Shown piece by piece: positions 12,166-58,250 of a stretch of DNA of 64,000 nucleotides. The notes beneath the pieces are model-generated. The model searched no databases. It was not told the origin of the DNA and worked only from the letters and a program-made list of their open reading frames with translations. The stretch is from a candidate division WWE3 bacterium (lineage in GTDB: Bacteria; Patescibacteriota; WWE3; UBA101185; UBA10185), in assembly GCA_052035175.1 (NCBI GenBank), contig JBPOHV010000001.1:459338-523337 (forward strand), read 5' to 3'. A program made the position numbers and the translations under genes. Position 1 is the stretch's first letter. Every line of letters starts with the position of its first letter.

Positions 12166-12194
12166 AAACTGAATATATTCAAATGTCAAAAGCA

Positions 12195-13995: not shown

Positions 13996-13996
13996 T

Positions 13997-14647
13997 TTAG
14001 TCTTTCTTTTTATTTTTAGAAGGTCTGTTTATATAAACACTAGTACCGAATGTGGTAGCAGCTGTTATACCAAATCCAATAATTGCTGGAGTGTCACCAG
14101 TATTTGCGAGTCCTAGTACTTGGCCACCAATGCCCAAGCGCGTTGTTGAGTAACCTGTAGCCAGTATGTCCCCGCCAAGTCCACCGCGACCACCATCATT
14201 ATCGTCATCTTCATCTTCATCGTCGTCGTTGTTGTTATCGTGGCAATCGTAAGACAAGTTCTTTGCTAGGTAAGGCTCTTCCTCAAGTCCCCAAAGTGCT
14301 CCATTTGGGATATATGTCCAACCTTGCTTTTGAAGCTCTGCAACCTCTTCTAGAGACATTTCAGACACTTTCCACCAATTGGTTTGCGTTCCGTTACCTT
14401 CATTAGGACAAAAGCATTGTACCAAGGTGTCTTGTGTAAGCGTATAGACTGCATCGCTTCCAGTTTGTTCTGAATAAACTCCAACAATGCCGTGTATACC
14501 AGAAGCATATGAGACTTTAAGTTGTCCTTGTGGATTTTCGCAATCTGCAAAAGTAGGTTCTGATATCTCAGAAGCGTTGGTTATTTGAGTTACAGCAAGA
14601 GAAGCTATTAAAATAAATGTTGCTACAAAGAGCCTGCCTTTTTTCAT
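13997..14647 (-). CDS. Sortase-substrate surface protein with a C-terminal LANTG sorting signal (ORF-track start 14701; MKKGRLF signal-peptide start at 14647 is likely)
   Basis: The C-terminus reads LANTG, then a hydrophobic segment TPAIIGFGITAATTFGTSVYI, then a basic tail NRPSKNKKKD. There is an internal D/E-rich run DNNNDDDEDEDDDND. It lies immediately upstream of, and is co-oriented with, the sortase. Confidence 0.65.
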   Translation of the reverse strand: MKKGRLFVATFILIASLAVTQITNASEISEPTFADCENPQGQLKVSYASGIHGIVGVYSEQTGSDAVYTLTQDTLVQCFCPNEGNGTQTNWWKVSEMSLEEVAELQKQGWTYIPNGALWGLEEEPYLAKNLSYDCHDNNNDDDEDEDDDNDGGRGGLGGDILATGYSTTRLGIGGQVLGLANTGDTPAIIGFGITAATTFGTSVYINRPSKNKKKD

Positions 14648-14737
14648 ATAAAACATTGGCAGGTTGGGGCAGATAGTACCACAATGACCTATAAAGATCA
14701 ACTATAAGGAAGGCAGCACATACTTGGTTTGATATAG

Positions 14738-37863: not shown

Positions 37864-39351
37864 ATGAAGCTTATAAATAATACAAAACTAATAACCTTAT
37901 TATTTATTTCATCTTTTTTTATATCCATATTTATAATCAACCCTGTATTCGCAAATAGTGATTTTGCAACATCTCCTGTTAATTATCGTTTGCTAGAAAC
38001 AAGCTATGATCACTTACCCGAACAGTTAGATGAGCAGATGCTTTGGGTTTATGTAGCAGTTCCCTGGCATATTGCAGAACCTTGTGATTCTGCTAAGCGT
38101 AATTGCCCATACAACTGGAATGACCCTGCTATGGTAGAGGTTGAGGATGCAATTGACCAATACATAGCCGCAGGGAAGAAAGTCTTTATTACAATAAAAA
38201 CCACTCCTGAGTGGGCAAGAGACCCACTATGTATTACAGCTGGTGCACCTACTTGTAGGCCCAAACAGTCAGCTTGGGATAATTTTGAACGATTTGCTAT
38301 AGCGTTATACGAACGACATCCATTAATTTTTGGACTTGAAGTTTGGAATGAGCCTGATGCTCCAGCATTTGAGACTTACTATGGTGGATGGGCAAATCCA
38401 GGAGATCCCACTTATGGAGGAGTTTGGTATGGAGAGTTTTTAGCTGACATTTATCCCACTATCAAAGCTGCGTTCGGTCCAAATAGATTTATATATATAG
38501 GTGGTTTAGCTCAAACTAATGTAGTCACTCACCCAAGTATGCAGTTTTTTTCTGGTGTCATGCAAACTATAAAAAATAGATCTGCGTGTATAAATGTAAT
38601 TGGCAGTAATTATGATTTGTGCGCAGACGGAATGCTGATGCATATGTATCCTTATTGGAAGTGTCTTGACGCTACTTGTACTGGTCTAGACTGGGATGTT
38701 GCGCGCGGTCAGTTAATGCAACTTGGCAATGAAGGCATGATAAAAGGAAAAATCATGTTTAATAAACAAATAATTTCTGATAACTGCAGTACAGAGGATT
38801 GTGTTAATAAATTTCCAATTAAAATTAATGAAACTGCTTTAATAAAAAATGACGCGAGTTGTGATCAGCCACATTATGCAGAGTATAAGCTAGCTAAAAT
38901 TAAATTTTTACCAAAGTTGTATTTTAGAGCGTTAGTCAACTTGGTAGGAAATACTCCATCGATAGCATATTTTGATTATGAAGATAGCTGGCAATGCGTA
39001 GGACTCAAGTATAATAATGAAACTGAACCGTTTGAAGTTTATGACTTCTTGTCTGAAAAACTTTATAATTACTCATGGAAGTTAGACTCTTACGTTTTTG
39101 GTGCAGGCAATAATACAGAGGTTGTTAAATTAAGAGATGAATATCAGCCAAACATTCAATTTTGGGCAGTTTATAATAATTCAAGTACAGTAATGTCGTG
39201 TTTCGATATACCGGTTGCAAATAGTGTTACAGTTTATGATGTGTTTGGTATTATAATGACTCCTCGGGTAGACTTCTGTAACCCAGTTCCGGGTGTATGG
39301 AACAGAGTTACACTTTACGATAGCCCAGTATATTTTAGTATTACCAATTGA
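37864..39351 (+). CDS. Secreted TIM-barrel glycoside hydrolase-like protein (clan GH-A style NEP motif)
   Basis: Signal peptide, then FGLEVWNEPDAP, the acid/base motif typical of GH5/GH39/GH42-type enzymes. Confidence 0.5.
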   Translation: MKLINNTKLITLLFISSFFISIFIINPVFANSDFATSPVNYRLLETSYDHLPEQLDEQMLWVYVAVPWHIAEPCDSAKRNCPYNWNDPAMVEVEDAIDQYIAAGKKVFITIKTTPEWARDPLCITAGAPTCRPKQSAWDNFERFAIALYERHPLIFGLEVWNEPDAPAFETYYGGWANPGDPTYGGVWYGEFLADIYPTIKAAFGPNRFIYIGGLAQTNVVTHPSMQFFSGVMQTIKNRSACINVIGSNYDLCADGMLMHMYPYWKCLDATCTGLDWDVARGQLMQLGNEGMIKGKIMFNKQIISDNCSTEDCVNKFPIKINETALIKNDASCDQPHYAEYKLAKIKFLPKLYFRALVNLVGNTPSIAYFDYEDSWQCVGLKYNNETEPFEVYDFLSEKLYNYSWKLDSYVFGAGNNTEVVKLRDEYQPNIQFWAVYNNSSTVMSCFDIPVANSVTVYDVFGIIMTPRVDFCNPVPGVWNRVTLYDSPVYFSITN

Positions 39352-40526: not shown

Positions 40527-40724
40527 CTATGTTGTTCTTGGTTTAAAGTTGGTTTCAAAAAGCAATTTTAAGTAATGTTTGTCTTGTGGGATCATGTTCA
40601 AAGCATCTAAATCTTTCGCATCTACCCATAGCATGCTTTGCCCTTCATTCAAGTTTAATTTTTGATCAGGATTATATTTTGCCACCAAATAAGCTATAGA
40701 GAGACGGGTAAATAGGAGCATCAT
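40527..40724 (-). pseudogene. Possible remnant of a NUDIX-like hydrolase C-terminus (gene fragment)
   Basis: A 65-aa ORF bounded by a stop codon six codons upstream of its Met. It sits inside an unusually long 525-bp non-coding stretch. The NUDIX assignment is weak. Confidence 0.2.
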
Positions 40725-40980
40725 CTGTCCGTTGTTGTATTAAGGCTTGGTTACTTTCGTTATAAAGTACTATATTAGCTACTCTTCGAATTGATTCCAT
40801 ATTTATCTTTGGTGACCCAACTGAGATTAAACTGGAACCCCCTACTTTCATCTATTATTGATTTGGTAGGTGTGCTTAAGAGTCCAAGTCCGTCTATAAC
40901 TTTAGCTTTCAACTAAGCACTTATAGCTCATCTATTACTACCCAATATGTACTAGAAACCCTCAGTACTACTTTCAAGTC

Positions 40981-41886
40981 CTATTTCTTCTTTGACTTTC
41001 GCTCCTTTGCAATATCCTCGACAAAAAACTTGTTATACGTTTTAAAACTGCAGTTCAATATCTTGTATTGCTTAAGTCTGGTGGCAAAGTACAGATAAAA
41101 TGTAAACGCGGTAGCTAGAACTAAATCGATCCTATCAGGGTTTTTATCAAGCAATAATGACTCTTCCCCAGCGGTATCCTTTACCCAAAAATGCTGCAAA
41201 CCAGTAATGGGCAAATGGGTATATTCTGACAAATATCTATATACAAGTGTGTACATATGCTCCACACCACCGTTTTTAGTTTTCTGGCGTTTTTTTAATC
41301 TCTTGTCTACGCGTGATGCGCGATCGTATAGACTACCCCAAACCTTTCTAAACTCATCTTTGTTTTCATATGAAATATTTAGGGAGTCTTTGTACTTTTC
41401 AAGCTCTTTTAATGGGAGTTCTCTCATTTTATCCAGGATACTATCAGGAAACGTAGAAGGTCTTAGGTGGGGATATTTACTGTAGACACTTTGTAGCTCG
41501 TTCACTACGGTTACCTTATAGTAACTGCCCTCAATTACATAATGATATAGTGGATTATTGTTAGGTGACCCTAAAATGTAATGTGAGTTGATCCATGTTT
41601 CTGATATGCTCCTTAGTATTACGATGGCAGCATCCGGTCTACTCTGTTTACAAAGTTCAAATATAGCCTCTGTATAGGAGTTAATTGCGGCGAACGCCGA
41701 CAGTACATAATATTGTTTTGGCGATAGTTCGCTTTTAACAATTGTTTTTTTGACAAGTTCTTCTTTTGTGTAATTTATAAGCTCTGCTAGCGTATTTAAG
41801 ATTTTTTGATTTTCTTCACTTAATTTTGGCAACTCATTCATACAAGGATTATAGCTTTTATTACTATTGTTATATAATCGAAGCAT
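40981..41886 (-). CDS. Hypothetical protein (element cargo)
   Basis: Intact 301-aa ORF. Lys-rich C-terminus. Confidence 0.5.
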   Translation of the reverse strand: MLRLYNNSNKSYNPCMNELPKLSEENQKILNTLAELINYTKEELVKKTIVKSELSPKQYYVLSAFAAINSYTEAIFELCKQSRPDAAIVILRSISETWINSHYILGSPNNNPLYHYVIEGSYYKVTVVNELQSVYSKYPHLRPSTFPDSILDKMRELPLKELEKYKDSLNISYENKDEFRKVWGSLYDRASRVDKRLKKRQKTKNGGVEHMYTLVYRYLSEYTHLPITGLQHFWVKDTAGEESLLLDKNPDRIDLVLATAFTFYLYFATRLKQYKILNCSFKTYNKFFVEDIAKERKSKKK

Positions 41887-41888
41887 AA

Positions 41889-41981
41889 CTTAGCCGGTCA
41901 CTATGTTTTGAACGACACTAAATGTGTCTTGAACCCAAGAAGGGGCTACCTTTTTATTGGGTTCAAGGCTGACCGGCTAAG
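41889..41981 (+). repeat. Nested inverted-repeat element: a 12-bp perfect IR (cttagccggtca / tgaccggctaag) enclosing a 5-bp hairpin and an 11-bp perfect IR (cttgaacccaa / ttgggttcaag)
   Basis: Read directly from the sequence. It folds as a three-way junction if transcribed. Confidence 0.45.
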
Positions 41982-42008
41982 GACTACGAAAGGTAGTCCC
42001 TTTTTTAT
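41981..42008 (+). terminator. Intrinsic terminator-like hairpin plus T-tract immediately after the nested IR element
   Basis: ggactac gaaag gtagtcc cttttttatgg. Confidence 0.5.
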
Positions 42009-42034
42009 GGTATTAATTATGGGTAATTTCTAAT

Positions 42035-42373
42035 ATGTATATACTTTTGATTATATTTACAGTCTACTTAGCCAAGAAGTATTTTGAACTAAGGGAAGGC
42101 TATGCAGATCTATTTAAGGCAGATGGATTTATGACTGCGCGGCTCACAGAAGAGGTTGGTATCCGGCGTGTGGTTGAAATGTCCTGTGACTATATATGCA
42201 CCTTATCCGGTGCAGAAAAAGAACGAGCTGTACGGAACTTGAACCAGAGATTTGGTATTGCGATTAAGCTTAACTCAGATGGGAGCGTTACACGGGAGAC
42301 TGTAAACAAAATAGCGGAAATTTTTAGTGCAAGAAATCCAAGATTACCTATAGACAATGCTACTGAAAATTAA
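42035..42373 (+). CDS. Hypothetical small protein (element cargo)
   Basis: Intact 112-aa ORF with an N-terminal hydrophobic segment. Confidence 0.4.
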   Translation: MYILLIIFTVYLAKKYFELREGYADLFKADGFMTARLTEEVGIRRVVEMSCDYICTLSGAEKERAVRNLNQRFGIAIKLNSDGSVTRETVNKIAEIFSARNPRLPIDNATEN

Positions 42374-42465
42374 GATAGGAGGGGGGTACCTTTGCAGTTG
42401 TCCTGTTTGTAAATAGTTATGGCAAACAGACCTTGTACAATTTTGTATCAAATTTTTTGATATTA

Positions 42466-42804
42466 CTACTCCCGGCTGTATTTATACAGATCAATTATTT
42501 CCTGAGGTACCTCTTCATATTTTGAGTAAAGAGCCTCAATTTTAGTTTGTATAACTGCCTGTTCTTTGAACAAGTTAGCTACGGCAGCATAGTCTTTTTC
42601 TAACAAAGCTTTGTTTTCTTCGCGGCATAAGTTGTACATTTGGTTGAAGTCAGAGCCCATAGTACCCATATCAGTACCTATTTCGTAAAGTTTATCGTTT
42701 TGCGTTTGTAGCTCTCTTATAAGTTTTTCTTTTTGAAACGCATTTATACCAAGACCAACAACTAACATTGTGAAAAGTATTGTGACCGCTTTACTCTTAC
42801 TCAT
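42466..42804 (-). CDS. Hypothetical membrane-anchored coiled-coil protein (ORF-track start 42948; MSKSK start at 42804 is likely)
   Basis: TM helix AVTILFTMLVVGLGINAF followed by a helical region. Confidence 0.4.
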   Translation of the reverse strand: MSKSKAVTILFTMLVVGLGINAFQKEKLIRELQTQNDKLYEIGTDMGTMGSDFNQMYNLCREENKALLEKDYAAVANLFKEQAVIQTKIEALYSKYEEVPQEIIDLYKYSRE

Positions 42805-42889
42805 GTTTCTGATCGTAGCACTTCCCCCACCCGGAAACAATAAATTAGCTATACCTCGTCTATAAAACAAATAGTGGTAAAATGACCTC

Positions 42890-43927
42890 ATGAACATATT
42901 TTTGGCGCCTCGTTCAAACGAAACATCATATAAAAACTTTTTGAGCACTATTGAAAGTGGTGTTGACTACTCAATAATTGAACCTCATCTAGACGAACAA
43001 GGAAAACAACTATTGGCCTCCGAAGATAAAATCTTTGCATGGGGTACTAAAGACTCTAAAAAAAGTTCATGGGAGAAGCTATTACCAGGTGATGTAGTGT
43101 TATTTTACAAGGGGAGAGAAGGCGAAGAACGCGAAGGCAAGCTTGTTTATGCAGGCAGATTACTATACAAACAAAACAGTAAGGCGTTGGGCACCTCTTT
43201 ATGGCCACCTAAAACCGGAGAAGAGCCTTGGACATGTATTTTCTTTTTAAACGATCTTAAACCAGTTTATATACCAATAACCGACATAGCGGATTTTGCA
43301 GGTTACAGTAGAAATCTTATTGTTCAAGGTTTTATGCCTATTAATGAGGATGGTGTAAATGCTATTTTGGCAAAGTTTGGAGATGTTGATAAATTTATTA
43401 AACATTACTCAGCGGATGCCCCAGTAAGTGCGAACGATTTGGAAGAAGAAGAAAACCACATTAGTGCTCATTCTGAAGCACAACTTCTATTACTGAAAAT
43501 AGGTACATTACTTGGGTTTGATACTTTTTGTCCTGATAAAGGTGCGGAGGCATACGGGGAAAAGTTAATCGACTATATTTCTTTACGAGAAGTCCCTAAG
43601 AGGTTTCTTGGTGAGGATATTTTAAAACTAGTCACTCAAATAGATGTAATTTGGTTTAAAGACGAGGTTCCAGTCGCAGCATTTGAAGTAGAACACAGCA
43701 CAAAGATTTTAAGTGGCATGCAGCGGCTGTGCCAGCTTAGTCCACTATCGACTAGGCTATACATAGTAGCCTCGACTAAGGATTATCATTTGTACGAAAA
43801 ATTTATTAATACAGACCCATATTATAAAAATAAAGGCTCTTTTAGATTTAGAAGCTACAAACAACTAGAAAGCTATTTTAAGTCAGTATCTGAGTTCACG
43901 GCCATACGTGACGTATTTATGGAGTAA
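42890..43927 (+). CDS. PUA/EVE-like domain fused to a PD-(D/E)xK-like nuclease domain; a candidate modification-dependent (Type IV-like) restriction endonuclease
   Basis: The N-terminal KIFAWGTKDSKKSSWEKLLPGDVVLFYKG...KLVYAGRLLYK fits the PUA-like EVE pattern (W...GD.v.FY). The C-terminal HSEAQLLLLKIG...IDVIWFKDEVPVAAFEVEHSTKI has E, then D, then the E.E..K spacing of restriction-endonuclease-fold proteins. Confidence 0.45.
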   Translation: MNIFLAPRSNETSYKNFLSTIESGVDYSIIEPHLDEQGKQLLASEDKIFAWGTKDSKKSSWEKLLPGDVVLFYKGREGEEREGKLVYAGRLLYKQNSKALGTSLWPPKTGEEPWTCIFFLNDLKPVYIPITDIADFAGYSRNLIVQGFMPINEDGVNAILAKFGDVDKFIKHYSADAPVSANDLEEEENHISAHSEAQLLLLKIGTLLGFDTFCPDKGAEAYGEKLIDYISLREVPKRFLGEDILKLVTQIDVIWFKDEVPVAAFEVEHSTKILSGMQRLCQLSPLSTRLYIVASTKDYHLYEKFINTDPYYKNKGSFRFRSYKQLESYFKSVSEFTAIRDVFME

Positions 43928-43947
43928 ATTACATTGGATATGAACAT

Positions 43948-45408
43948 ATGTCTAAAGTAGGTAGAAATGACAAATGTCGATGTGGTTCTGGGAAGAAATA
44001 TAAATACTGTTGCGGCATTGATGGTGCACCAAAACTCCCAACAAATGTTAATAGACCCATAAGAGATAGAAATTTGATGATGATGCATGCAGTTGATGAT
44101 ATTTTCAAGTTTGATAAAAAAACTACATGGGATGATTTTCGAAAAAATATCAATGATGAACAAGTAAGAGAGTTTTATAGTTTTATGGATTGGCTGTGGC
44201 CGCTTGAAACTAATGTGGAAGCACTCTTACCTAAACCGTCAGATAAGCTTCGCGGCTTATACATTGGTGATATTAAGCCAGACAAAATTAGTACAAATAT
44301 ACTGCGCTACAGTTTATACACTGATGAAATTGTTGTTGTTAATCCATTTCCACATCCAAGAGCAATGTCCCCAGATTACAATCCGATTTTAAACCCCGGT
44401 CAATATAAACAAGATACATTGCAGATGATTTTTTTTGTAATGTCCTTATACAATTGGGTAGGTAAAGGTATTGTTCATTTAGTCCCTAACCCTATGGATT
44501 TCAATTATAAATTGCGTGATTCGTTCTTTTCTTCTGCTGAAGCACGGTGGAAAGATATCACTCCCGAAGATATGGAAAGCATATTAAGTGAAGAGGAAAA
44601 AAAGGAACTTGAAGAAGAAGGTAAGGATATGATTTTGAACACAATATCTCGTATGCCAGTAGATGCCCAAAAGGAGTTTATAAAACGACATCTACCTTCG
44701 ATTTCAGATACTGAAATGAACGCTCAAATCGACTTTATAAAGAGACAACGTAAAGCTAATGTATTATGGTTAGATCAAGATATGCCGGCAAACACGCCAG
44801 AACTTAAGGCTATGAGGTTAGGTGGCAATTTAGAACTAGGTTTGTATCTTAGTCAGTTAACAGGGTCCTATATGTATACAAATCGTAAATCCCAATGGAA
44901 CGAAATCTTATCGGTGCAGGTCAATAGCAATGATGAACAAGATATTTGGTCACCACTTACCAATGCGTTTCAATCGCTAGATTTCCAGTTTTTAGACAAT
45001 GTAAATTATGCTTTTATAGATAGATTGCAGGAAGAACAACGGCTTGAAAGTTTTAGAAACTACTTGCGTCGTGTGTGGGAAAGCATTAATAGTCCCACTC
45101 AAGCGTCAGAGGGTACTGTGCGCGAGTTTAAGGATGAACTTAAAGAGCAATACGCTATTGCAAAAGAGGATTGGAAGAAAATAGACATTACATTGAGAGA
45201 TTGGTTACTGAAAAAAAGCATACTCAACTCTGGCGCTGTTGCAGGAGCAAGTCAAATTCTTACAGGAAACATTAATTTGATAGCTCCAATGCTTGGGTTC
45301 TGCCTAGATGGTGTTAACCAGCTGCTTCAAGCAAATGATAAAAGAAAAGAGTTTAAGACAAAAGTACCCTTATCTGTATTTATTGATTTGGAAAATCATA
45401 GGCCATAA
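43948..45408 (+). CDS. SEC-C-motif (CxCGSGKKYKxCC zinc-binding) protein; the ~450-aa remainder has unknown function
   Basis: N-terminal KCRCGSGKKYKYCCG. It starts 20 nt after the nuclease-like gene. Confidence 0.5.
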   Translation: MSKVGRNDKCRCGSGKKYKYCCGIDGAPKLPTNVNRPIRDRNLMMMHAVDDIFKFDKKTTWDDFRKNINDEQVREFYSFMDWLWPLETNVEALLPKPSDKLRGLYIGDIKPDKISTNILRYSLYTDEIVVVNPFPHPRAMSPDYNPILNPGQYKQDTLQMIFFVMSLYNWVGKGIVHLVPNPMDFNYKLRDSFFSSAEARWKDITPEDMESILSEEEKKELEEEGKDMILNTISRMPVDAQKEFIKRHLPSISDTEMNAQIDFIKRQRKANVLWLDQDMPANTPELKAMRLGGNLELGLYLSQLTGSYMYTNRKSQWNEILSVQVNSNDEQDIWSPLTNAFQSLDFQFLDNVNYAFIDRLQEEQRLESFRNYLRRVWESINSPTQASEGTVREFKDELKEQYAIAKEDWKKIDITLRDWLLKKSILNSGAVAGASQILTGNINLIAPMLGFCLDGVNQLLQANDKRKEFKTKVPLSVFIDLENHRP

Positions 45409-45418
45409 ACACTTGATT

Positions 45419-45802
45419 ATGCCCAAGATACTTCGCACACCCAAAAACAAGTATGGCTTAAGTATAAAGCAGCGTATGGTGATAGAGGATATAGTATCTG
45501 ATATCAAACATAACAGACCGTTTAACCCCGTAACATCACATAAAAAATACTACAATGCCAAAAATAAGTTGAGTTTATCAGTTATAACTCATGAAAACTT
45601 AAATAGACCTAACTTTAAAGCAGCTCTTTTTGAGGCTTTGGAGTATGAAGGTGTATTAGGAGTATCGGGAAATGCACCACATGTTCTCATTTCGGGTTTA
45701 AACGCTTATCAAATTATAAATGGCGAAAAAGTACCGGACTATAAAACACGGCTAAAATATATCCAAGAAATAAATAAAATAACCGGTGTTTATCCAAAAT
45801 AA
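45419..45802 (+). CDS. Hypothetical small basic protein immediately upstream of the recombinase (ORF-track start 45308 overlaps the previous gene)
   Basis: 127 aa from MPKILRTPKNK. No motif. Confidence 0.4.
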   Translation: MPKILRTPKNKYGLSIKQRMVIEDIVSDIKHNRPFNPVTSHKKYYNAKNKLSLSVITHENLNRPNFKAALFEALEYEGVLGVSGNAPHVLISGLNAYQIINGEKVPDYKTRLKYIQEINKITGVYPK

Positions 45803-45816
45803 GCTATAATTACCTT

Positions 45817-45885
45817 GTGCTCATCTATATGTTTGTAAGCAGAAATGACCGTCTTAGTCATCTATAAAAATATGGATGAGCACAC
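45817..45885. promoter_or_regulatory. Imperfect 14-bp inverted repeat (gtgctcatctatat / atatggatgagcac) with a central small hairpin, 20 bp upstream of the recombinase start
   Basis: Read from the sequence. A candidate operator or recombination site. Confidence 0.3.
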
Positions 45886-45903
45886 TAGGGCGGTCTTTTT
45901 TGT

Positions 45904-47616
45904 ATGAAAAACACACTTGAAGGTAAAAACGCAGTAATAATAGCTAGAGCATCAACCACAAAACAATTTGATGCTGGAGATACTCTGGATCACCAAATAA
46001 ATCAATGTGAAATATATATTAAGAAAATGGGTATGCACCTAATTAAAGCGTTTACGTTAGTTGAGTCAGGTAGAAATGAGGAAAGGGAGTTTTTCACGGG
46101 TATATTAAACTACTGTTTAAATCCTAAAAACAGGGTTCAAGCAGTTGTTTTTAAAGACATATCCAGATTTACCAGGCAAGGAAGCAATACCTATACAAAT
46201 CTGAAGCAACAGTTATCTCGTGCCAATATACGGTTAGTAGATACTATGGGGATAATACAAGAAGAAGAAAACATTCTCGCTCACTTAAATGTTGTTTTTG
46301 ATTGGAGTCTTCGTTCACCGTCCGAAAGAACGGAGATAATGGAAGCTGAGGAAGCTCGTAATGAAGTAAAAAATATATTAAGCAGGACTATTGGCGCGGA
46401 AATCCAATATGTACAAGATCCCGCTAGCTACTCTGTTCGTCAACCTGAGTTTGGCTATAAGAACATTAAAACAGACGTTGATGGGAAAAAACGAACTATT
46501 AGAGCACCTGATGAAGCAGAAGCTCATTGGGTAAGGGAAATGTTTAGATTACGAGCAGAAGGTATATTAAGTGATGAAGAAATTGCACAAGACCTAAATA
46601 ATAGGGGTTTTGTTACGAGGACATTTAATAGAAGGGATAAGGAAACTAAAAAGATTGTAGGTAAGTCCGGTGGCAAGAAGTTAACTGCGAAAACCTTGAA
46701 AAAGTACATTCACAAAACAGTTTATGCCGGAGTTGTACAGGAAACTTGGGGAGGAACAACACTTTTAACTGTAAAATCAAATTTGTGGGAGGGACTAGTT
46801 ACAATCGAGACATTTAATAAAGCTAACAAAGGAAAGGTTTACATTGAAGTTCGGGATGATAGAACAGCGCATATCATGTACAACGTTAAAGATAAAAGGC
46901 GCACTCGTAGTAAAAATAACGCTTTGTTTCCATATAAAAACTATGTTTTATGTCCTATATGTAAGCGCACTCTCATGGGTAGTGCTTCTACGGGGAAGCT
47001 AGGTGGGAAGTATCCCTACTATCATTGTGAACGCAACCACAAAAGATTTAGTGTTAAAACAAGCGATATGGACAAAACAATTGAAAACTTTGTCGCTAGC
47101 CTAAAGTTTAAGGAAAGCTTTGCCAACGATTTTAGACTTGTGGTCAGGGATTTGTATCAACAGGAAAAGAAAAGGCTTCTAGAAAACACCGTAGAGGCAT
47201 CAAACCTTTTAGTTGAGCTAAAATCGCAGCAGGATCTTCTAATGGATAACCTTGTCGTGACCAAGTCCGCTTTAGTACGAGCTGAGTTGGAGAAGAAGTA
47301 CGAAGAGCTTGAACTAGATATTGCGCTAGCCATAGATTCCAGAAATAAATCTGAAGCAAAAGAGCTAGATCTTTACTATTTCGAAAATCAACTTATAAAG
47401 CTAATGGAAAACCCGAGGAAATTGTTGTCACAAGGCGCTGAAACAGTTGGTATAGGTAATATGTTTAGTAGGTTCTTTAGTGAGCCTCCCACATACGAAG
47501 ATTTAGTTAAGGGAACCCCAAAATTAACGCCTATTTTCGAGTTATCTAGAAATCAAGAAGTATCAAAGGATTTAATGGTGACCCTACGGGGAATCGAACC
47601 CCGGTTATCAGGATGA
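45904..47616 (+). CDS. Large serine recombinase (resolvase/invertase-type catalytic domain, recombinase domain, zinc ribbon, coiled coil)
   Basis: The catalytic N-terminus AVIIARASTTKQ is the Y.RVST..Q family signature. The zinc ribbon is CPICKRT...YYHCERNH, followed by a long helical C-terminus. The final 13 codons read through the tRNA-Glu T-arm and acceptor-stem sequence, giving GIEPRLSG. Confidence 0.85.
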   Translation: MKNTLEGKNAVIIARASTTKQFDAGDTLDHQINQCEIYIKKMGMHLIKAFTLVESGRNEEREFFTGILNYCLNPKNRVQAVVFKDISRFTRQGSNTYTNLKQQLSRANIRLVDTMGIIQEEENILAHLNVVFDWSLRSPSERTEIMEAEEARNEVKNILSRTIGAEIQYVQDPASYSVRQPEFGYKNIKTDVDGKKRTIRAPDEAEAHWVREMFRLRAEGILSDEEIAQDLNNRGFVTRTFNRRDKETKKIVGKSGGKKLTAKTLKKYIHKTVYAGVVQETWGGTTLLTVKSNLWEGLVTIETFNKANKGKVYIEVRDDRTAHIMYNVKDKRRTRSKNNALFPYKNYVLCPICKRTLMGSASTGKLGGKYPYYHCERNHKRFSVKTSDMDKTIENFVASLKFKESFANDFRLVVRDLYQQEKKRLLENTVEASNLLVELKSQQDLLMDNLVVTKSALVRAELEKKYEELELDIALAIDSRNKSEAKELDLYYFENQLIKLMENPRKLLSQGAETVGIGNMFSRFFSEPPTYEDLVKGTPKLTPIFELSRNQEVSKDLMVTLRGIEPRLSG

Positions 47617-47650
47617 AAACCTGATGTCCTGACCATTAGACGATAGGGCC
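47576..47650 (-). tRNA. tRNA-Glu (anticodon UUC) with encoded CCA
   Basis: The minus strand reads GGCCCTA TC GTCT AATGGTCA GGAC A TCAGG TTTTCAT CCTGA TAAC CGGGG TTCGATT CCCCG TAGGGTC A CCA. The cloverleaf folds cleanly. Confidence 0.85.
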
Positions 47651-47729
47651 TTATACTAGATATATATCAGAAACGTCACTATTTTAGCAAAGAATACCCC
47701 TAAGTATCAATGATTAAGTAATCTAGTGC

Positions 47730-49844: not shown

Positions 49845-50631
49845 TTATATCTACCCCGCGTTTTAATTTGACGCCTTTTTGAATTTCTTCTTTCTCTTTA
49901 CCTCTTGTTATGTCCAAAACTTTTCCGTCTTGTATTCTGACTGCTGATTTTCCATATCTAAGATATTCTAGGTCGTGCGTAACCATTAATATTGTACGTC
50001 CTGTATTATTTAAATCTACTAGTATTTGTAATAAGTTTTGACCAGACTCGTAATCAAGGTTTCCTGTAGGTTCATCGGCGATAATTAATTCTGGGTCGGT
50101 AACCAAAGCTCGTGCGAGTGCAACCTTTTGCTGTTGACCTCCGGATAGCTCTGTAGGACGGTAGCTCGCCCAGTTTTGCATACCCATACTTTCTAGGGAT
50201 TTCCAAGCTTTTTGCAAAGCAGTTACGCGGTCTACTCCTAATAAAGATAAAGGAAATGCAATATTCTCAATTACTGAAAGCGATTTGACCCAGTTGGCTT
50301 GTTGATAAACCATACCTATATGTTTTTTTCTAAATCCAGATCTATCATCGTCAGTTGCTAATGCGTACAAATCTGTATCCAAACAAAAAACCTTCCCAGA
50401 TGTTGGTATTTCCAAACCTAGTAAGACGTGTAATAAAGTTGATTTACCAGATCCAGATGGACCAAGAATAATTGCAAAATCACCGCGAGGCACTTCAAAC
50501 GAAATGCCTTTTAGTACTTCGATAGTTTGTGTACCTACGATAAAAGACTTGGTTATCTCTGTTGCTTTTAAAACAATTGCGGGTGCCGCTGGTGCTGCTG
50601 CCTCAGCAGTTTGTGCTGGAATATCACTCAT
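49837..50631 (-). CDS. ABC transporter ATP-binding protein (MacB/LolD/FtsE-like)
   Basis: Walker A GPSGSGKST, signature LSGGQQQKVALARAL, Walker B IIADEPTGNLD, H-loop VTHD. Confidence 0.9.
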   Translation of the reverse strand: MSDIPAQTAEAAAPAAPAIVLKATEITKSFIVGTQTIEVLKGISFEVPRGDFAIILGPSGSGKSTLLHVLLGLEIPTSGKVFCLDTDLYALATDDDRSGFRKKHIGMVYQQANWVKSLSVIENIAFPLSLLGVDRVTALQKAWKSLESMGMQNWASYRPTELSGGQQQKVALARALVTDPELIIADEPTGNLDYESGQNLLQILVDLNNTGRTILMVTHDLEYLRYGKSAVRIQDGKVLDITRGKEKEEIQKGVKLKRGVDING

Positions 50632-53600
50632 TTTTTAAGACCTCCCAAGAATCCAAACACTTCACCCAAATTTGTAATTACCAAGTTCAATGCGCTGTCA
50701 GAAGATTTTGGCGTAATGCTTACAGTGTCTATAGATTTTGCTTCATTGGTTGCTTTGTCTTTAGAAAGAGCTCGTAAATGATAAACTTTTGAAGTATTTA
50801 AACCTGAAATTACCACGACGTGGTTGTAAGTTAGGTTTGAGTCTTCTTGCGTCTTTTGAGAATAGGTTGTTCCTGTACCTTCGCCAAATTCCACTTGAGA
50901 TGTTCCGGGTTCGTCTGTATCCCAACTTACTACCAATTGCGCTGTAGCTACTTGTTCACTTGTATTAACGATATTTCCTTCGACTCGTAAGTTTGAAATC
51001 AAAGGAGGTCTCGTATCTGTTGCAGTTGTTAATTGTTGTGGATCGCTCGAGGCCTGATTCCCTGCTTTGTCTATACCTTTTACTACCATTGTATAAGGTG
51101 TTTCTGGGAATAATCCTTTTATTAATAACCTATGTACACCTTTAACGAGCTTAACATTAACTTCGTCTCTTGCTTGTGATGCATCGCTGCTTGGGTAATA
51201 CGTAATTATTGATGAAACTTCTGTATTAGTTGACCATGATACTAAAACTGCTGGTTGTGCACTACCTTTGACTTGTTGGATTTTGACATTATCTATTTTT
51301 GGTCGTGGTAAAGTTTCAAACGACAAAATACTTCCTTCATACTCTTCGCCTTCTGTATCAAAAGTGTTTATTTTATAATAGTATTTTGTACCATCTTCCA
51401 AGCTATCTATTGTTGTATTATAAGTTGTTTCGCTTGTAGAAGTTGAAAGTTCAACAGAACCTCCAAATGCAGAAGTTTTGCCATAATAAATTTTAACTTT
51501 TGAAGAACTATTTACGGTATATTGCAGAATTACACTGTTAATGCCAACTGTTTTGGCTGTTGGATCAGTTACAGTCGGCGCTGGTGCAGTCTCAAAAGTA
51601 AATTCATCTGTTAGTCCAGTATTTCCATCTTCATCAGTCCACTTTGCTACTGCATAATAATTTGTTCCTGGTGAAAGATTTGTAAGCGTTATTTCGTGTG
51701 CAGTTACTTGAGTTGAGTTTGAAGGCTCTTCGTCAAAATAATCACCCTCACTCGTACCAAATTGTATTTTTGAATCGCTGGCTCGATCTGTGGACCATGT
51801 TATTGTAGCTTGCTTTGTTGTTATGCCAGTTACTTCTGGTTCACTTTCTAGCGCTGCAGCTTCTGTAAATTTACCTGTAGGCAATAAGGAAACAGCTGCA
51901 GTAGATGCGCCGCAGTTGCTTACGCTATCGCAAGCTTTCACTTTATAATAGTATGTTTCTTGTTCTAGTGATGTATCGATATACGCTGATCCTGTTGTAG
52001 ATGCTAATAATGTATATGTACTATCGTCAGAAGATCTATATATTTCATATTCTTCTACGCCAGAACCTACATCAGTAGGAGCTGTCCATGATAATGCCAA
52101 CCTCCATGCTGATGTACTTTTGATAGAAACGTCTGAAATTTCTAGATTTAACGGAATGCCTGGTGCAGATGTATTGGCTGTGAAACTTACACTAGTGTAA
52201 GATCCATAATTTATAGTTCCTCCTACATCATCTCCGTTTTTTGCAACTAAATAAAAAGTATTCAAACCTACTTGTGTAGCAAATGAGCTCGCCGAAACAG
52301 ATGTAGCTCCAGCGCTTGTATAAGTACATGTATCTACAGAAGGTAGTGTATTTACTGTATAACAATATGTCAGGTCAGATGAGTCACCGCTATACGTTGC
52401 AGGAATTTGCCAAGAAAACGCAAAAGAGTTAGTTGTATTTGTGCTAGGTGTAGCAGTCAAAAATTGTGGTGCCGATGGTCCATCTCCTCCATAATAGTAT
52501 GTAGCTTGTAATGGTGTTGCCGATACATTACCCGCTGTATCAATTACTCTTAAATAAAATGTATTTGCGCCTGTTTGATATGCAGCAGAAGGGATATCAA
52601 TACTAGTAGAAGCAGTAGTCGACGACCAATCGCTTAGATCTCCACTTGGTGCACCAGTTTTATATTGATATCCTGCTAAACCTGATCCGGTATCTGATGC
52701 AATTCCATCCCCAGACGAGGGCCATGAAAATGTAAACGAATTTGTAGATGCATAACCAGAAGGTGTAACAGTAACTGTACTTGGGTTGCTTGGATTTGTA
52801 TTATCAAACTTATATATAAAAGGTGCGTACACTGTGCTTAAGTTTTGTGCATTATCTTTGGCTTGAATTCGCAAATAATACGTCGATCCGCTCGACAACC
52901 CTGAAGCTGAGTATGATGTACCCACTTGAAATACTCCTGCTGTAGATGGTGTTGCAGTATTATCTGTTCCAAAATAAACATAATAACCAGCAACTCCAGC
53001 TTCTGTGTCTGATGCGCCGCTCCAAGAGAAATACGGTGTTGTATACGTATACCAAGTGTTTGTTGTCAAAGATGTTCCTCCGCCAGAAACATTTAGAGCT
53101 GTCAAACTACTTGGTGGGTTAGGATTTGTTGTATCTGCTTCAGCTTCAACTGTTATAGAATTTAGTGTTACAGCTTGTGTACCATCTCCATCCAAGATAG
53201 CTTGCCATTTAATACCGCTAGAGCTTATAGAAAAAGTGTCTATATTGGTATCAATCGTTGAACTAGCGTTGGCTTGTGCGGTAGACGCAGATGTAGCCCA
53301 AGCTCCGCCATCCCAATATTTCCAAGTAGTGCCGCCATCGTTAGACAACCGATAAGTTATTGCTCCGCCATTTGCAGTTTCTGAAACTACAAATCCGGTA
53401 TATGTATATATATCTTCAGTAAACACGGCTGTCGCATTTTGTATAGTTTGTGCCGATGTAGAATAAGCTGTTGTATTAAATGATGGTAGTGCAGTATTGC
53501 TTATTCTCACTTCGTCTATATTGCCATTAAAAAATCCTTGAGGACTACCCTGACTAGTGCTTCCATAAGTTGTTCCTAGTAAAACTGCTTTTGCGGTATT

Positions 53601-56477
53601 TGGTATTGATAACGAGGCACTTCCAGAGTTATCCAAAGTTCCGTCAATATAAATTTTCATAGTAGAACCATCGTATGTAGCAGCTATATGATGCCAGCTA
53701 GTATTTTGTGACGTAGTTGCCGATTGCAAATACCCATTGTTTCCATAAGACCAAATAGCAGCATCTACATTTGCACTTTCACCTAATCCAGCATAAAGTT
53801 TGCCTTTGTAAACACTTAAAGAGTGTACGCTTTCAGATGCATTAATATCCCAGCTAGAATTTAAGGCATCGCCTCCGACTTGTGCCCATGTTGAACCATC
53901 GTATTTCCATACTTCTGATTCTCCTGCTGTAGTACCAAGGCCAGCATAAATGTCCCCATTATAAGAAGCTAGTGCTCTGAGTCTTTCATAAGTTCCTGCT
54001 GTCCAACTTCCTCCAATATCGTCGCCACCTATTTGTGTCCAAGCAGCGCCATCCCATTTCCATAAATCAGCATCACCTGCTGTTGTACCTAATCCTGCAT
54101 ATATTTCACTGTTATGTACAATCAGTGTTTCTACTATTTCATGTAAAGATGCCCATCCAGAATTTGTGCTGTCGCCTCCTATTTTAGTCCATGCAGTGCC
54201 ATTAAAACTCCAAACCTCAGCATCCCCAGCAGTGTTACCAATGCCTGCGTAAACAACCCCATTATAAGAGGTCATACTATACACAGCTTCAAAATTTGTT
54301 GTCCAACCAGAGTTAAGACTGTCTCCTCCAACTTTTTCCCACACTGTCCCATTCCATCGCCACACTTCTGCATCATTTGCAGACAACCCCAAACCTGCGT
54401 ATAAATATCCTCCTGAAACTGTCATGCTTTGCACTGTTTCAAAACCGGTATTCCAACCCGAGTTTAAATTGTCACCTCCAACTTGTGTCCAAGTTGTACC
54501 GTTGTAGCTCCAAACTTCCGCGTCGTTGGCGGTTGATCCAATACCCACATATAAATCTCCATTATAGCTTCGCATAGAGAATACGCCTTCATATGTAGCA
54601 GCTGACCAGCTACTATTTACTCCTTGCCCACCAACAATTGCCCAAGAACTACCGTCGTATTCCCATACTAATGCATTGCCTGCAACGGTATACCCGGTAC
54701 CAGCATACAGTTTACCGTTGTGAGTTTTCATAACTTCTACACTTTGCAAATTATAAAAGCCCCAACTTTTGTTAATATAATTTCCGCCTATTCTGGTCCA
54801 AGCAGATCCATTCCAAGTCCAGAATTCTCCTGAAGCTGATGCTGCTGTAGTTCCTGTATATAAAGTCCCGCCAGTATAAAGAAGCGTATTTATTATTGTA
54901 TGTGTATTTGTAAATCCAGAATTTATAGCATCTCCACCAATTTTGGTCCAAGCAGAACCATTCCAACGCCATACTTCATTGTCACCTGCTGTTGTACCAA
55001 GCCCTGCGTAAATATTAGTACCATCACTCTCTAATGCGTAAACACCTTCATAATTTGTAGTCCACCCAGAATTTGTGCTGTCGCCTCCTATTTTGGTCCA
55101 GCTGCCACCTGTATACTGCCAAACTTCTGCATCATTTGCCGAATTTCCTAGGCCTGCATACAAACTAGTACCAGCATATTCCATTGTAAGGACTTGTTCA
55201 TAATCAGTATTCCAGCTAGAGTTTGTCCCATCTCCGCCAATTTTGGTCCAAGCAGATCCATTCCAGCTCCAAATCTCTGCGTCTGTCGTACTGCTTCCTA
55301 AGGCTGCATATACTGTAGATCCGTCATTAACCAGTTTCATTACTGTCTCAAAATTTGTAGTCCATCCTGAGTTTATACTATCTCCACCTATTTTGGTCCA
55401 AGCAGATCCATTCCAGCTCCAAACCTCCGCATCATTAGCACTACTACCAGTACCAGCGTACAAAGTTGAACCCATATATGTAAGAGTAGCAATATATTCA
55501 TAAGTTCCTACTGCCCAGCTTGAATTGATGGCATCGCCACCAATTTTAGTCCAACTGTTACAACCAGTACTTGTATTGCAATACCAAACTTCAGCATCTC
55601 CTGCGGTTATACCAATACCTATATATAAGTTTGTACCATCTGTTGCCATAGCAGAAACAGTCTCAAACGTTTGAGCTGCCCAGCTTGAATTAATGGCATC
55701 GCCACCCACTTGTTCCCAAATAGTCCCATCCCATTTCCAGACTTCTGCATCACCTGCAGCATTTCCTAAGCCAACATAAATGTTGCTCCCAACAACAATA
55801 GATGAATTTACATCCAGTTTTCCGTTTAAATCCCAACTTTCGTTTATATCAAGGCCAGCTCTTTGAGTCCAATCTGTTTCTGTGGTATTAACTAACTCAT
55901 ACGTCACTTTACCTGTTTCATTGTCGTAATAAAGTTTGTAATCACCTTTATCGATAATACCTTGTTCATATTCGGTACTTCCTGCAGAAAATGCTGTTCC
56001 AAACTTTGTCCAAGCTTCCAAAGTATTTGATTGGCTAAGTGATAAAGATGAGCTATCTGGTATAGATATTTTTTTTGTAAGTCCATCCAATGAAAATGCG
56101 TTGTTTAGATTACCTGTAGTCCAAGAAGCAATTGATGCAGTACCGTCGTTATTATTTGCAGATGCATCGTCTACAGTTGTTCCGCTAGACTCATCTAAGT
56201 GCCACAGACCCATTGTATTAGCGTCAGTTGTATAATTTTGTACTTTAAGTCTCGCAGTATTGCTACTTACTTCTATTGCTGCAGAGTCAGATAATGTGTA
56301 ATCACCAGAGCTAGCAAATGTCCAAGCTTGGCTTACATATCCAGCAGCTAATGCTTTTAAATAGGTTTGAGTTAATACAACAGTAAAACATATTAAAACC
56401 AAAGATATTACAACGTAAGTAATTTTTTTCTTTGTATTGAAAAACTTATAAAAGATTAATGGCAGCTTTTGTATCAT
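50628..56477 (-). CDS. Giant (1949-aa) cell-surface protein: N-terminal anchor, LamG/ConA-like domain, ~13 Kelch-like beta-propeller repeats, a second LamG-like domain, multiple FN3-like domains
   Basis: N-terminal TM. Repeats have the form DAEVW.WNGSAWTKIGGD..NSGW...YE.V.....G..LYAG.G. FN3-like segments include YYLRIQAKDNAQN. Its stop overlaps the ABC ATPase start by 4 nt. Confidence 0.7.
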   Translation of the reverse strand: MIQKLPLIFYKFFNTKKKITYVVISLVLICFTVVLTQTYLKALAAGYVSQAWTFASSGDYTLSDSAAIEVSSNTARLKVQNYTTDANTMGLWHLDESSGTTVDDASANNNDGTASIASWTTGNLNNAFSLDGLTKKISIPDSSSLSLSQSNTLEAWTKFGTAFSAGSTEYEQGIIDKGDYKLYYDNETGKVTYELVNTTETDWTQRAGLDINESWDLNGKLDVNSSIVVGSNIYVGLGNAAGDAEVWKWDGTIWEQVGGDAINSSWAAQTFETVSAMATDGTNLYIGIGITAGDAEVWYCNTSTGCNSWTKIGGDAINSSWAVGTYEYIATLTYMGSTLYAGTGSSANDAEVWSWNGSAWTKIGGDSINSGWTTNFETVMKLVNDGSTVYAALGSSTTDAEIWSWNGSAWTKIGGDGTNSSWNTDYEQVLTMEYAGTSLYAGLGNSANDAEVWQYTGGSWTKIGGDSTNSGWTTNYEGVYALESDGTNIYAGLGTTAGDNEVWRWNGSAWTKIGGDAINSGFTNTHTIINTLLYTGGTLYTGTTAASASGEFWTWNGSAWTRIGGNYINKSWGFYNLQSVEVMKTHNGKLYAGTGYTVAGNALVWEYDGSSWAIVGGQGVNSSWSAATYEGVFSMRSYNGDLYVGIGSTANDAEVWSYNGTTWTQVGGDNLNSGWNTGFETVQSMTVSGGYLYAGLGLSANDAEVWRWNGTVWEKVGGDSLNSGWTTNFEAVYSMTSYNGVVYAGIGNTAGDAEVWSFNGTAWTKIGGDSTNSGWASLHEIVETLIVHNSEIYAGLGTTAGDADLWKWDGAAWTQIGGDDIGGSWTAGTYERLRALASYNGDIYAGLGTTAGESEVWKYDGSTWAQVGGDALNSSWDINASESVHSLSVYKGKLYAGLGESANVDAAIWSYGNNGYLQSATTSQNTSWHHIAATYDGSTMKIYIDGTLDNSGSASLSIPNTAKAVLLGTTYGSTSQGSPQGFFNGNIDEVRISNTALPSFNTTAYSTSAQTIQNATAVFTEDIYTYTGFVVSETANGGAITYRLSNDGGTTWKYWDGGAWATSASTAQANASSTIDTNIDTFSISSSGIKWQAILDGDGTQAVTLNSITVEAEADTTNPNPPSSLTALNVSGGGTSLTTNTWYTYTTPYFSWSGASDTEAGVAGYYVYFGTDNTATPSTAGVFQVGTSYSASGLSSGSTYYLRIQAKDNAQNLSTVYAPFIYKFDNTNPSNPSTVTVTPSGYASTNSFTFSWPSSGDGIASDTGSGLAGYQYKTGAPSGDLSDWSSTTASTSIDIPSAAYQTGANTFYLRVIDTAGNVSATPLQATYYYGGDGPSAPQFLTATPSTNTTNSFAFSWQIPATYSGDSSDLTYCYTVNTLPSVDTCTYTSAGATSVSASSFATQVGLNTFYLVAKNGDDVGGTINYGSYTSVSFTANTSAPGIPLNLEISDVSIKSTSAWRLALSWTAPTDVGSGVEEYEIYRSSDDSTYTLLASTTGSAYIDTSLEQETYYYKVKACDSVSNCGASTAAVSLLPTGKFTEAAALESEPEVTGITTKQATITWSTDRASDSKIQFGTSEGDYFDEEPSNSTQVTAHEITLTNLSPGTNYYAVAKWTDEDGNTGLTDEFTFETAPAPTVTDPTAKTVGINSVILQYTVNSSSKVKIYYGKTSAFGGSVELSTSTSETTYNTTIDSLEDGTKYYYKINTFDTEGEEYEGSILSFETLPRPKIDNVKIQQVKGSAQPAVLVSWSTNTEVSSIITYYPSSDASQARDEVNVKLVKGVHRLLIKGLFPETPYTMVVKGIDKAGNQASSDPQQLTTATDTRPPLISNLRVEGNIVNTSEQVATAQLVVSWDTDEPGTSQVEFGEGTGTTYSQKTQEDSNLTYNHVVVISGLNTSKVYHLRALSKDKATNEAKSIDTVSITPKSSDSALNLVITNLGEVFGFLGGLKK
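53700..55800 (-). repeat. Tandem ~141-150-bp nucleotide repeats inside the giant gene; some copies are near-identical
   Basis: For example 55231-55277 versus 55381-55427 (tctcc.cc.attttggtccaagcagatccattccagctccaaa.ctc), with similar units near 54781, 54931 and 55078. Confidence 0.6.

Positions 56478-58172: not shown

Positions 58173-58250
<78 letters not shown>

Follow-up and report, generated by a model that had tools for sequence, protein, structure and literature searches.

The integrases of PhiC31, Bxb1, A118 (LI integrase), SPbeta, and TP901-1 are built alike, with a catalytic N-terminal domain (NTD), a recombinase domain, and a zinc ribbon with a coiled coil, in that order. A predicted protein with the same domain order, a large serine recombinase (LSR), is encoded in a 64,000-nucleotide (nt) stretch of the genome of a candidate division WWE3 bacterium (assembly GCA_052035175.1, contig JBPOHV010000001.1, positions 459,338 to 523,337 of the forward strand). 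We refer to this stretch as the window. The 3' end of the LSR gene lies inside a tRNA-Glu gene that faces it. Here we argue that positions 40812 to 47578 of the window are very probably an integrative island that its own LSR, an enzyme with predicted activity, inserted at the tRNA-Glu(UUC) gene of the host, on the 3' side of that gene.

Parts of this arrangement have precedents. The Ccr LSRs of SCCmec insert at the extreme 3' end of rlmH (orfX), the gene stays active, and elements can accumulate in tandem. This tandem build-up is comparable to the junctions that we describe below at loci L001 and L016. However, SCCmec differs from our locus in that it targets a protein-coding gene, has its ccr genes in the interior of the element, and has an attP outside the recombinase open reading frame (ORF). 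Phage Mx8 has an attB that overlaps tRNA-Asp genes. For this phage, Tojo and coworkers in 1996 and Tojo and Komano in 2003 are said, by the titles of their reports, to have placed attP inside intP and to have found that integration alters the C terminus of the integrase. The attP inside the integrase gene and the altered C terminus are as here, but IntP is a tyrosine recombinase with other chemistry and another site architecture, and Mx8 is a 50-kb phage, not a small island. Mx8 and SSV integrases have both been described as ones that "extend across attP" (PMC4383910). The SSV1-type archaeal integrases also have attP inside the integrase gene (PMC4383910; reviewed in PMC8371274), but they are tyrosine recombinases whose gene is split in two by integration, whereas here only a terminal helix would be lost.

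Two further classes are closest in overall plan. Islander-type islands of tyrosine recombinases sit at a tRNA gene, have a tRNA-proximal integrase gene, leave the tRNA functional, are small, and carry variable, partly defence-like cargo, all of which is also true here. They differ from our locus in that it has a serine recombinase, a repeat of just 9 nt, and a crossover at the discriminator end, not in the anticodon or T loop. The window island is not Islander-type, because its recombinase is not of the tyrosine type and there is no displaced tRNA fragment. The LSRs of phages and of integrative and conjugative elements use short attachment (att) sites with a very short common core and an outer motif that lies 5 bp further out in attP (PMC3783163). 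Our sites and their core are likewise short, and the right half-sites, but not the left, have this offset. However, their target is a site inside a protein-coding gene, whereas here it is the 3' end of a tRNA gene, attP is inside the integrase ORF, the left half-sites are almost unconserved, and the islands are 5 to 10 kb long and without phage genes. Current practice treats tRNA genes as targets of tyrosine integrases only (PMC4383910), and a review of mobilizable elements has serine-recombinase elements integrating within genes and disrupting them. A large survey of LSRs groups targets by protein-coding gene and never mentions tRNA (PMC10083194). The first-pass annotation of the window had called a tRNA target unusual for an LSR, which holds against that survey. 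We found no earlier description of an LSR/tRNA arrangement in open-access full text, although one may exist elsewhere.

The LSR ORF and the convergent tRNA-Glu 3' part have 41 nt in common (positions 47576 to 47616). The shared stretch runs from the encoded CCA and the discriminator through the acceptor 3' strand, T arm, and variable region into the anticodon stem. The LSR gene ends in ...gat tta aTG GTG ACC CTA CGG GGA ATC GAA CCC CGG TTA TCA GGA TGA, and from TGG on it is the reverse complement of the tRNA-Glu 3' part, from the encoded CCA onward. Translated in the LSR frame, the overlap is (M)VTLRGIEPRLSG*; besides the stop codon, it contains 12 whole sense codons and two of the three bases of a Met codon. 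Therefore, the earlier count of 13 tRNA-encoded recombinase codons was essentially right. The tRNA-Glu target is complete after the insertion by both ARAGORN and Rfam.

By its sequence, the protein belongs to the LSR family, with the defining domains present and the chemistry predicted. It matched the Pfam families Resolvase (PF00239; E value, 6.6e-10; above the cut-off) and, following helix E, Recombinase (PF07508; E value, 1.1e-07; 32.4 bits versus a cut-off of 21.1). It also matched the phrog_95 integrase family of PHROGs (E value, 6e-38). The catalytic-domain residues R15, S17, and K20 are invariant in 39 homologues, and the zinc-ribbon residues C350, C353, H374, and C375 are invariant in the homologue alignment. 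A family profile matched the NTD of TP901-1 integrase (E value, 5e-15), and sequence similarity to solved LSRs was confined to the NTD. An AlphaFold2 (AF2) model of P0040, a full-length homologue with the C-terminal tail described below, is that of a canonical LSR. In this model, long paired helices at residues 402 to 476 are followed by a disordered linker (residues 547 to 559), which is the part encoded by the att core, and then by a C-terminal helix (residues 563 to 589). Foldseek alignments of this model with SPbeta-type, PhiC31, and Bxb1 integrases covered its full length (E values of 1e-12 to 1e-16), and its fold matches included the serine integrase structures 9y66, 9dxd, 9rah, and 9iu2. 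The window LSR is the sole recombinase between 40.8 and 47.6 kb, and no tyrosine recombinase is encoded there.

The position of the LSR gene at a tRNA 3' end is a property of its family. The 57 homologues found by a protein search come mostly from Patescibacteria metagenomes, and a scan of one genome per species with a 10-sequence alignment as the query yielded 80 loci. Nearly all of the 57 homologues end in tRNA-complement peptides (...LVTPRGIEPRLPG, ...GFEPP..., ...GIEPPPKVLETFVLPLN, and ...RRVELRLPA). The ORF terminates inside an opposite-strand tRNA gene in 61 of the 80 loci (tRNA-Glu in 32, Lys in 9, Trp in 8, Arg in 5, Val in 3, Gln in 3, and Gly in 1), and a tRNA is absent at 8. At 11 loci, the contig breaks at, or no more than 60 nt from, the ORF end or the integrase-tRNA junction (L006, L023, L024, L025, L032, L034, L035, L060, L063, L076, and L082), a pattern that fits a population in which only some members carry the element. 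The register is fixed. An anchor codon (GTG, GCG, or GCT) lies 22 codons past the G of a conserved GTPKL motif, and the tRNA 3' end is no more than 3 nt from it in 47 of 57 cases, with the small offsets following the presence or absence of an encoded CCA. The conserved protein sequence reaches right to the tRNA end, and beyond it the reading frame over the tRNA varies between some loci (e.g., ...CDPEGNRTP...). Therefore, it is the DNA geometry that is conserved and not the tRNA-encoded peptide. Because so many loci share the overlap, at a constant spacing from a motif that is conserved in the protein, it is far beyond chance. At several loci, the overlapped tRNA heads a host-type cluster (Lys-Glu, Arg-Lys, Val-Leu, Arg-Gly-Pro, or Glu-His). 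It had been suggested that homologues might reveal a true stop upstream of the tRNA. They have none; they also enter tRNAs, and the ancestral ORF was longer, ending in a tail of the form L.WNTIE..I..W.

Some loci depart from this pattern. At L006 (about 11626 to 11713) and L013 (about 11716 to 11743), the integrase ORF tracks the tRNA 3' end for about 18 to 25 nt and then diverges (...LVTPRGI|PSEILRV... and ...SHTGLEP|FDPITTVF, respectively). These may be truncated or rearranged targets. Five loci from Rhodobacteraceae, Rhizobiaceae, and a Niastella metagenome-assembled genome (L027, L028, L044, L046, and L080) have the tail form LAG....WNTFE... and no tRNA nearby. Two of them, L027 and L044, have further tail-type sites 0.5 to 3.3 kb downstream, and L046 is a cultured isolate, Pseudorhodobacter sp. 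E13.

We found the distal edge of the island by searching the translated upstream DNA for the conserved tail G(L/F)(S/G)WN.I..TI..W..., which a minority of homologues carry. The sequence from 40810 is TGGTGACCC AACTGAGATTAAACTGGAACC..., and its first 9 bases are identical to those at 47576 to 47584. We name the arms of the sites after attB and attP (B-left, B-right, P-left, and P-right) and count positions from the anchor. A position weight matrix (PWM) for the P-right arm was trained solely on other loci, on positions +3 to +32 with the core left out. Its top score in the whole window, on both strands, was at 40812 (17.9 bits, against a mean of -31.6 and a standard deviation of 9.2, or about 5.4 standard deviations above the mean). 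All 32 of the strong P-right matches are on the integrase strand. The window element therefore measures 6,766 bp, from 40812 (attL) to 47578 (attR). The same attL-cargo-integrase-attR layout, with a tail relic after a short copy of the tRNA end and 3 to 9 kb of cargo, is present in about 22 other loci, and element sizes across loci are 4.8 to 10.1 kb. A separate Logan assembly (L003) is identical over both window junctions. Thus, the earlier proposal that the recombinase lies beside its att site at a tRNA 3' end is supported by the 61 loci and by the related distal edge. The sequence relationship between the island edges and tRNA-Glu, on which that proposal hung, consists of a 9-nt copy of the tRNA-Glu 3' end at the far edge and, after it, the displaced tail-coding arm of attP.

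Two other sites were considered and rejected. A candidate attL at about 39250 to 39310 (...MTPRVDF...GVWNRV, at the end of the ORF at 37864 to 39351) matches the tRNA end at 12 of 23 bases, lies inside a long ORF, and has no PWM match. A 10-nt match, GGTGACCCTA, at 41564 is within the DUF5677 gene, has no P-right motif after it, and is attributed to chance.

Comparison of the paired edges places the exchange. In every locus, the block that is identical between attL and attR includes anchor positions 0 to +3. It is exactly 4 nt long in at least four pairs and 9 nt long in the window pair, and examples of the block are GTGA (tRNA-Glu), GCGGGC (Trp), GTGCGCC (Arg), and GTGCG (Gly). In the sequence logos, position +4 is G in most attL sites versus C in the tRNA. 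Because the identity blocks cover 0 to +3 and position +4 differs, the crossover would be at or before +3, and to judge from these alignments, the exchange must fall within the 4-nt core GTGA, tRNA positions 74 to 71, at the discriminator end. A crossover at this extreme 3' end would make nearly all of the overlapped tRNA sequence host DNA and not element DNA. The tRNA stays intact because the element carries the same few bases. Neither a 52-mer nor a 20-mer, each allowed up to 3 mismatches, revealed a displaced tRNA-Glu 3' half longer than about 10 nt, nor did short-word BLAST or an ungapped local search of 57 loci. Therefore, a crossover deep inside the tRNA is ruled out.

The right arms have the offset that is known from other serine integrases. 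In logos of the tRNA arm (attB), GA.TCGAACC at +13 to +22 corresponds to the T loop and stem. In logos of the element right arm (attP), GAATGGAACAC at +18 to +28 corresponds to the E, W, and N codons of the tail. From attB to attP, the right-arm motif is thus shifted 5 bp away from the core, and the T-loop mimic in attP is GAATGGAAC, which makes up the W-N codons. In LI integrase sites, the zinc-ribbon (ZD) motif occupies bp 16 to 24 of the half-site in attP versus bp 11 to 19 in attB (PMC3783163). By analogy, the right-arm offset appears to match this published 5-bp shift, with GAATCGAAC in attB and AACTGGAAC in attP as the putative ZD motif pair, and if the LI integrase geometry holds, the crossover dinucleotide would be at +2/+3. 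The junctions that we reconstructed are ...AAAGGATTTAATGGTGACCCAACTGAGATTAAACTGGAACC... for attP and ...CCATATTTATCTTTGGTGACCCTACGGGGAATCGAACC... for the empty attB.

The anatomy of the island with its paired att sites, the register shared across the family, and the offset of 5 bp are direct observations, and we propose the following mechanism for them. In the free circle, attP would lie inside the last integrase codons. Its left arm would encode ...FELSRNQEVSKDLMV, its core TGGTGACCC would mimic the tRNA 3' end, and its right arm would encode the C-terminal tail (...LNWNPLLSSIIDLV...). Exchange between attP and attB would occur within the 4-nt GTGA, with the tRNA acceptor 3' strand and T arm serving as the right arm of attB. 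In attB, the probable target of the zinc-ribbon domain is the T-loop/T-stem motif GAATCGAAC, and in attP it is probably the mimic GAATGGAAC, 5 bp further out as in known serine integrases. After the exchange, the tRNA would be intact, the integrase ORF would be fused to the tRNA complement and so gain 12 host-encoded residues, and the tail-coding arm would be left 6.8 kb away as attL. Features of the island and its target are listed in Table 1.

Table 1. Features of the predicted island and of its tRNA-Glu target, in window coordinates
Feature	Position	Strand	Details
attL common core TGGTGACCC	40810-40818	+	Identical to tRNA-Glu 3' end (reverse complement of GGGTCACCA); minimal family-wide core GTGA at 40812-40815
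P-right arm of former attP (integrase tail relic)	40819-40916	+	In frame from anchor codon 40812: (L)VTQLRLNWNPLLSSIIDLVGVLKSPSPSITLAFN*
ZD-type motif AACTGGAACCC	40830-40840	+	Matches family consensus GAATGGAACAC
DUF5677 protein, 301 aa	40981-41886	-	Pfam PF18928, E 1e-16
Cargo ORF, 112 aa	42035-42373	+	No informative family match
Cargo ORF, 100 aa (as called on contig L003)	42466-42768	-	No family
Type II restriction endonuclease-like, 345 aa	42890-43927	+	PADLOC REase_II, E 2.3e-07; Pfam NmeDI_C on identical contig; phrog_14240, E 3e-19
SEC-C metal-binding motif protein (N-terminal), 486 aa	43948-45408	+	Pfam PF02810, E 5.7e-06; NCBIfam SWIM/SEC-C matches, residues 2-23 only
Small ORF directly upstream of integrase, 108 aa	45476-45802	+	No family
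LSR ORF, 570 aa	45904-47616	+	Integrated, C-terminally altered form; residues after ...SKDLMV(T) read from host tRNA DNA
attR common core TGGTGACCC	47576-47584	+	Anchor GTG at 47578-47580; minimal core GTGA at 47578-47581 = tRNA positions 74-71
tRNA-Glu(UUC), intact, predicted integration target (attB)	47576-47650	-	ARAGORN (anticodon ttc); Rfam RF00005, 66 bits at 47579-47650
B-right arm of attB	47585-47600	+	tRNA-Glu acceptor 3' strand and T arm; GAATCGAACC at 47591-47600 = +13 to +22 from anchor
Promoter-like site, TTGATA-18-TAAAAT, TG-extended	47681-47710	-	About 30 nt upstream of tRNA-Glu

Other origins of the overlap were considered. If it were incidental, the ORF would simply miss its stop, the real protein would end upstream, and the tRNA would be irrelevant to recombination. 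Short gene overlaps are common in compact genomes, and the tRNA-encoded residues are not conserved as protein, with tRNAs and frames differing between loci. However, chance does not account for the same convergent overlap in a fixed register at 61 of 80 loci, for conserved protein that reaches the tRNA end, or for the 9-nt tRNA core and displaced tail at the other edge of the island, and we consider this explanation vanishingly improbable. The distal edge also bears on the idea that the tRNA-Glu is borne by the element, as in many phages, and that the element integrated elsewhere. The tail relic and tRNA core delimit an island that stops at the tRNA and excludes its body, the overlapped tRNA at other loci is the first of a host-type cluster, and the window tRNA is preceded, on the host side, by a promoter-like site of its own. 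Therefore, although mobile elements often carry tRNA genes and no empty site was observed, an element-borne tRNA is extremely improbable. Finally, the geometry might be that of classical tRNA islands, in which crossover is in the T or anticodon loop and the element brings a replacement tRNA 3' half, in the style of tyrosine integrases. This was the picture in the first-pass annotation, and it has some appeal because the T arm is a natural inverted repeat and some tails (L006 and L013) follow the tRNA for about 18 to 25 nt before they diverge. However, a displaced tRNA 3' half is absent from the 45.9 kb upstream in the window and from up to 10 kb upstream in 55 loci, the attL/attR identity blocks are merely 4 to 9 nt long and always at the discriminator end, and the mostly G-for-C difference at +4 confines the crossover to +3 or earlier. 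We regard the classical geometry as highly improbable.

A more serious alternative is that the island arose as described but is now a fossil, with an inactive tail-less integrase, fixed in the chromosome. No excised form or empty site was found, the island has no compositional contrast with the genome, and the window tail relic deviates from the family consensus at several less-conserved positions. Even so, the 570-codon ORF is intact with its catalytic and zinc residues, all of the most-conserved P-right positions are kept, the relic frame is open as in 22 of 22 examined, and 11 of 80 contigs break exactly at the junction, fitting element-mixed populations. A fossil is unlikely on this evidence, and we prefer an island put at tRNA-Glu by its own LSR, which may still be active. 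Several results nevertheless count against our interpretation. We found neither an empty attB site nor an excised attP circle. Of three neighborhoods around homologues of the FtsX protein that flanks the island (the nearest are 55 to 59% identical), none had a tRNA-Glu beside the gene, which is uninformative. IMG/VR viral contigs contained no relative, and a metagenome scan with a family-level attP pattern returned one attL-type match, on a contig without an integrase or a tRNA. Neither GC nor skew differs between the island and its flanks. The left half-sites are poorly conserved, with TT at -2/-1 as the only B-left signal and only coding-explained signal in P-left, and no mirror image of the right-arm motif was found in their logos, which is unusual for LSR sites. 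The att site model is therefore incomplete for the left arms. The Zn_ribbon_recom match of the LSR is below the Pfam threshold (19.4 versus a curated 25.3 bits). Despite this score, a zinc ribbon with an embedded coiled coil is predicted to be present, because the four zinc-ribbon residues are invariant, the model has paired helices, and the Foldseek alignments are full length.

Elements also occur next to one another. P0002 at L001, which is 60% identical to the window integrase and its closest relative, is preceded by a different LSR, int_A, with only 20% identity. The int_A ORF ends ...SSMV|TQLSLEWKPLISSIIDLVEIL, and the DNA of this tail is about 75% identical to the window attL relic (over about 70 nt). 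Because of this match, the tail fused to int_A appears to belong to the downstream P0002-type element and not to int_A. In L001, LSR genes at 6589 to 8265 and 10001 to 11734 are in tandem, each fused to a tail-type right arm, and are followed by type IV secretion genes. From their sequences, the best interpretation of these junctions is tandem accretion at a tRNA site, such that one element's left arm meets the right arm of its neighbor, and attR would therefore be reusable as a target. L016 has four tail-relic, att-like sites (3797, 4501, 5472, and 6477) in direct orientation, 0.7 to 1.0 kb apart, upstream of one integrase at tRNA-Arg. GTGCGCC precedes three of the relics and GTGCACC precedes one. 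Such distances leave no room for integrase genes, and they suggest cassettes that lack an integrase or tandem elements with extensive deletions.

ORFs of the int_A clade likewise end in tRNA-encoded peptides, and on the DNA they overlap tRNA-Glu at L091 (by 41 nt) and tRNA-Lys at L092. Elements of this clade carry primases. Another LSR at L091 is convergent on tRNA-His, such that LSR islands converge on tRNA-Glu and tRNA-His (11496 to 11570 and 13122 to 14661), with an SBP_bac_5 gene between them. The window has an SBP_bac_5 gene at 56692 to 58107 and then tRNA-His at 58174 to 58250, and no recombinase was seen beside this tRNA-His.

The cargo of these elements is variable and partly restriction or defence-like. 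Reading of the sequences identified an AAA ATPase or a type III-like pair of methylase and helicase in other elements. No virion structural, packaging, or lysis genes were found in the window element, where, apart from two marginal matches, PHROGs returned only the integrase and one family of unknown function. Five elements (L024, L037, L042, L055, and L062) share a 60- to 74-amino-acid (aa) ORF directly before the integrase, with the motif F..FK..LG......SDE.I..L....D.LA...FD.W, and it may encode an accessory or directionality factor. In the window, this position is taken by an unrelated 108-aa ORF, which might play such a role as well. No terminator-like site was seen after tRNA-Glu on the minus strand, so tRNA-Glu transcription may conceivably run antisense into the 3' end of the integrase gene.

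Outside the island, a 64-aa ORF on the host side of attL (40527 to 40721, minus strand) has a weak match to the PADLOC candidate-defence family PDC-S07 (E value, 2.6e-4). The 26 nt at positions 12194 to 12219 are 96% identical to the stretch of tRNA-Lys from the D arm to the anticodon loop. They lie 63 nt upstream of the intact tRNA-Lys gene (12091 to 12165, minus strand), in a region where Rfam found a single tRNA. This copy could be the scar of another integration or a decayed duplicate. A 1949-aa ORF (50628 to 56477, minus strand) contains a tandem array, at 53852 to 55790, of at least 10 repeats, which have diverged and measure about 150 nt (50 aa) each. It is upstream of ABC ATPase and FtsX permease genes, and this order of giant protein, ABC, and FtsX is kept in distant relatives (L084 to L086).

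Integration would also change the integrase itself. The integrated ORF ends ...DLMVTLRGIEPRLSG, whereas the reconstructed excised ORF ends ...DLMVTQLRLNWNPLLSSIIDLVGVLKSPSPSITLAFN and encodes 592 aa. We infer the same kind of C-terminal change in about 22 loci. Because the P0040 model puts the helix at residues 563 to 589 after the linker encoded by the att core, integration is predicted to remove one terminal helix, with tRNA-encoded residues in its place. All 22 tail relics examined keep an open frame of 29 to 40 codons, and that in the window has 34. The logos have conserved T's at second codon positions beyond the att site, which points to selection on the tail peptide itself and not on the DNA site alone. 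A tentative idea, which we hold to be possible but doubtful, is that the tail swap is a built-in directionality or regulatory switch and that attR can still be targeted, making tRNA genes accretion platforms. If so, only the free element would make a full-length, integration-competent integrase with a conserved amphipathic C-terminal helix. The integrated gene would give a helix-less enzyme with different activity, silent or excision-prone, and gene rearrangement would do at least part of the job of the separate directionality factor in other serine integrases. The swap is a clean natural experiment on whether the C-terminal extension of an LSR controls directionality.

The arrangement generalizes to a widespread class. 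At least two distant LSR clades, mostly in Patescibacteria (candidate phyla radiation, CPR), insert small islands at tRNA 3' ends, and the targeted tRNAs belong to at least seven isoacceptor types. Such islands would be missed by island finders that need a displaced tRNA fragment and by LSR surveys that group protein-coding targets (PMC10083194). The tail relic and short core offer a handle, readable in the sequence, to delimit mobile islands in poorly understood genomes. The family is also a natural panel of serine integrases with an attB that can be predicted from the tRNA acceptor and T arm. The near universality of T-arm sequences makes this panel interesting for genome engineering. Finally, if the idea of accretion is right, only the right half-sites would carry specificity, so that attR would stay a target, and the tRNA genes of Patescibacteria would be accretion platforms on which small defence islands are stacked in tandem, as at L001 and L016.

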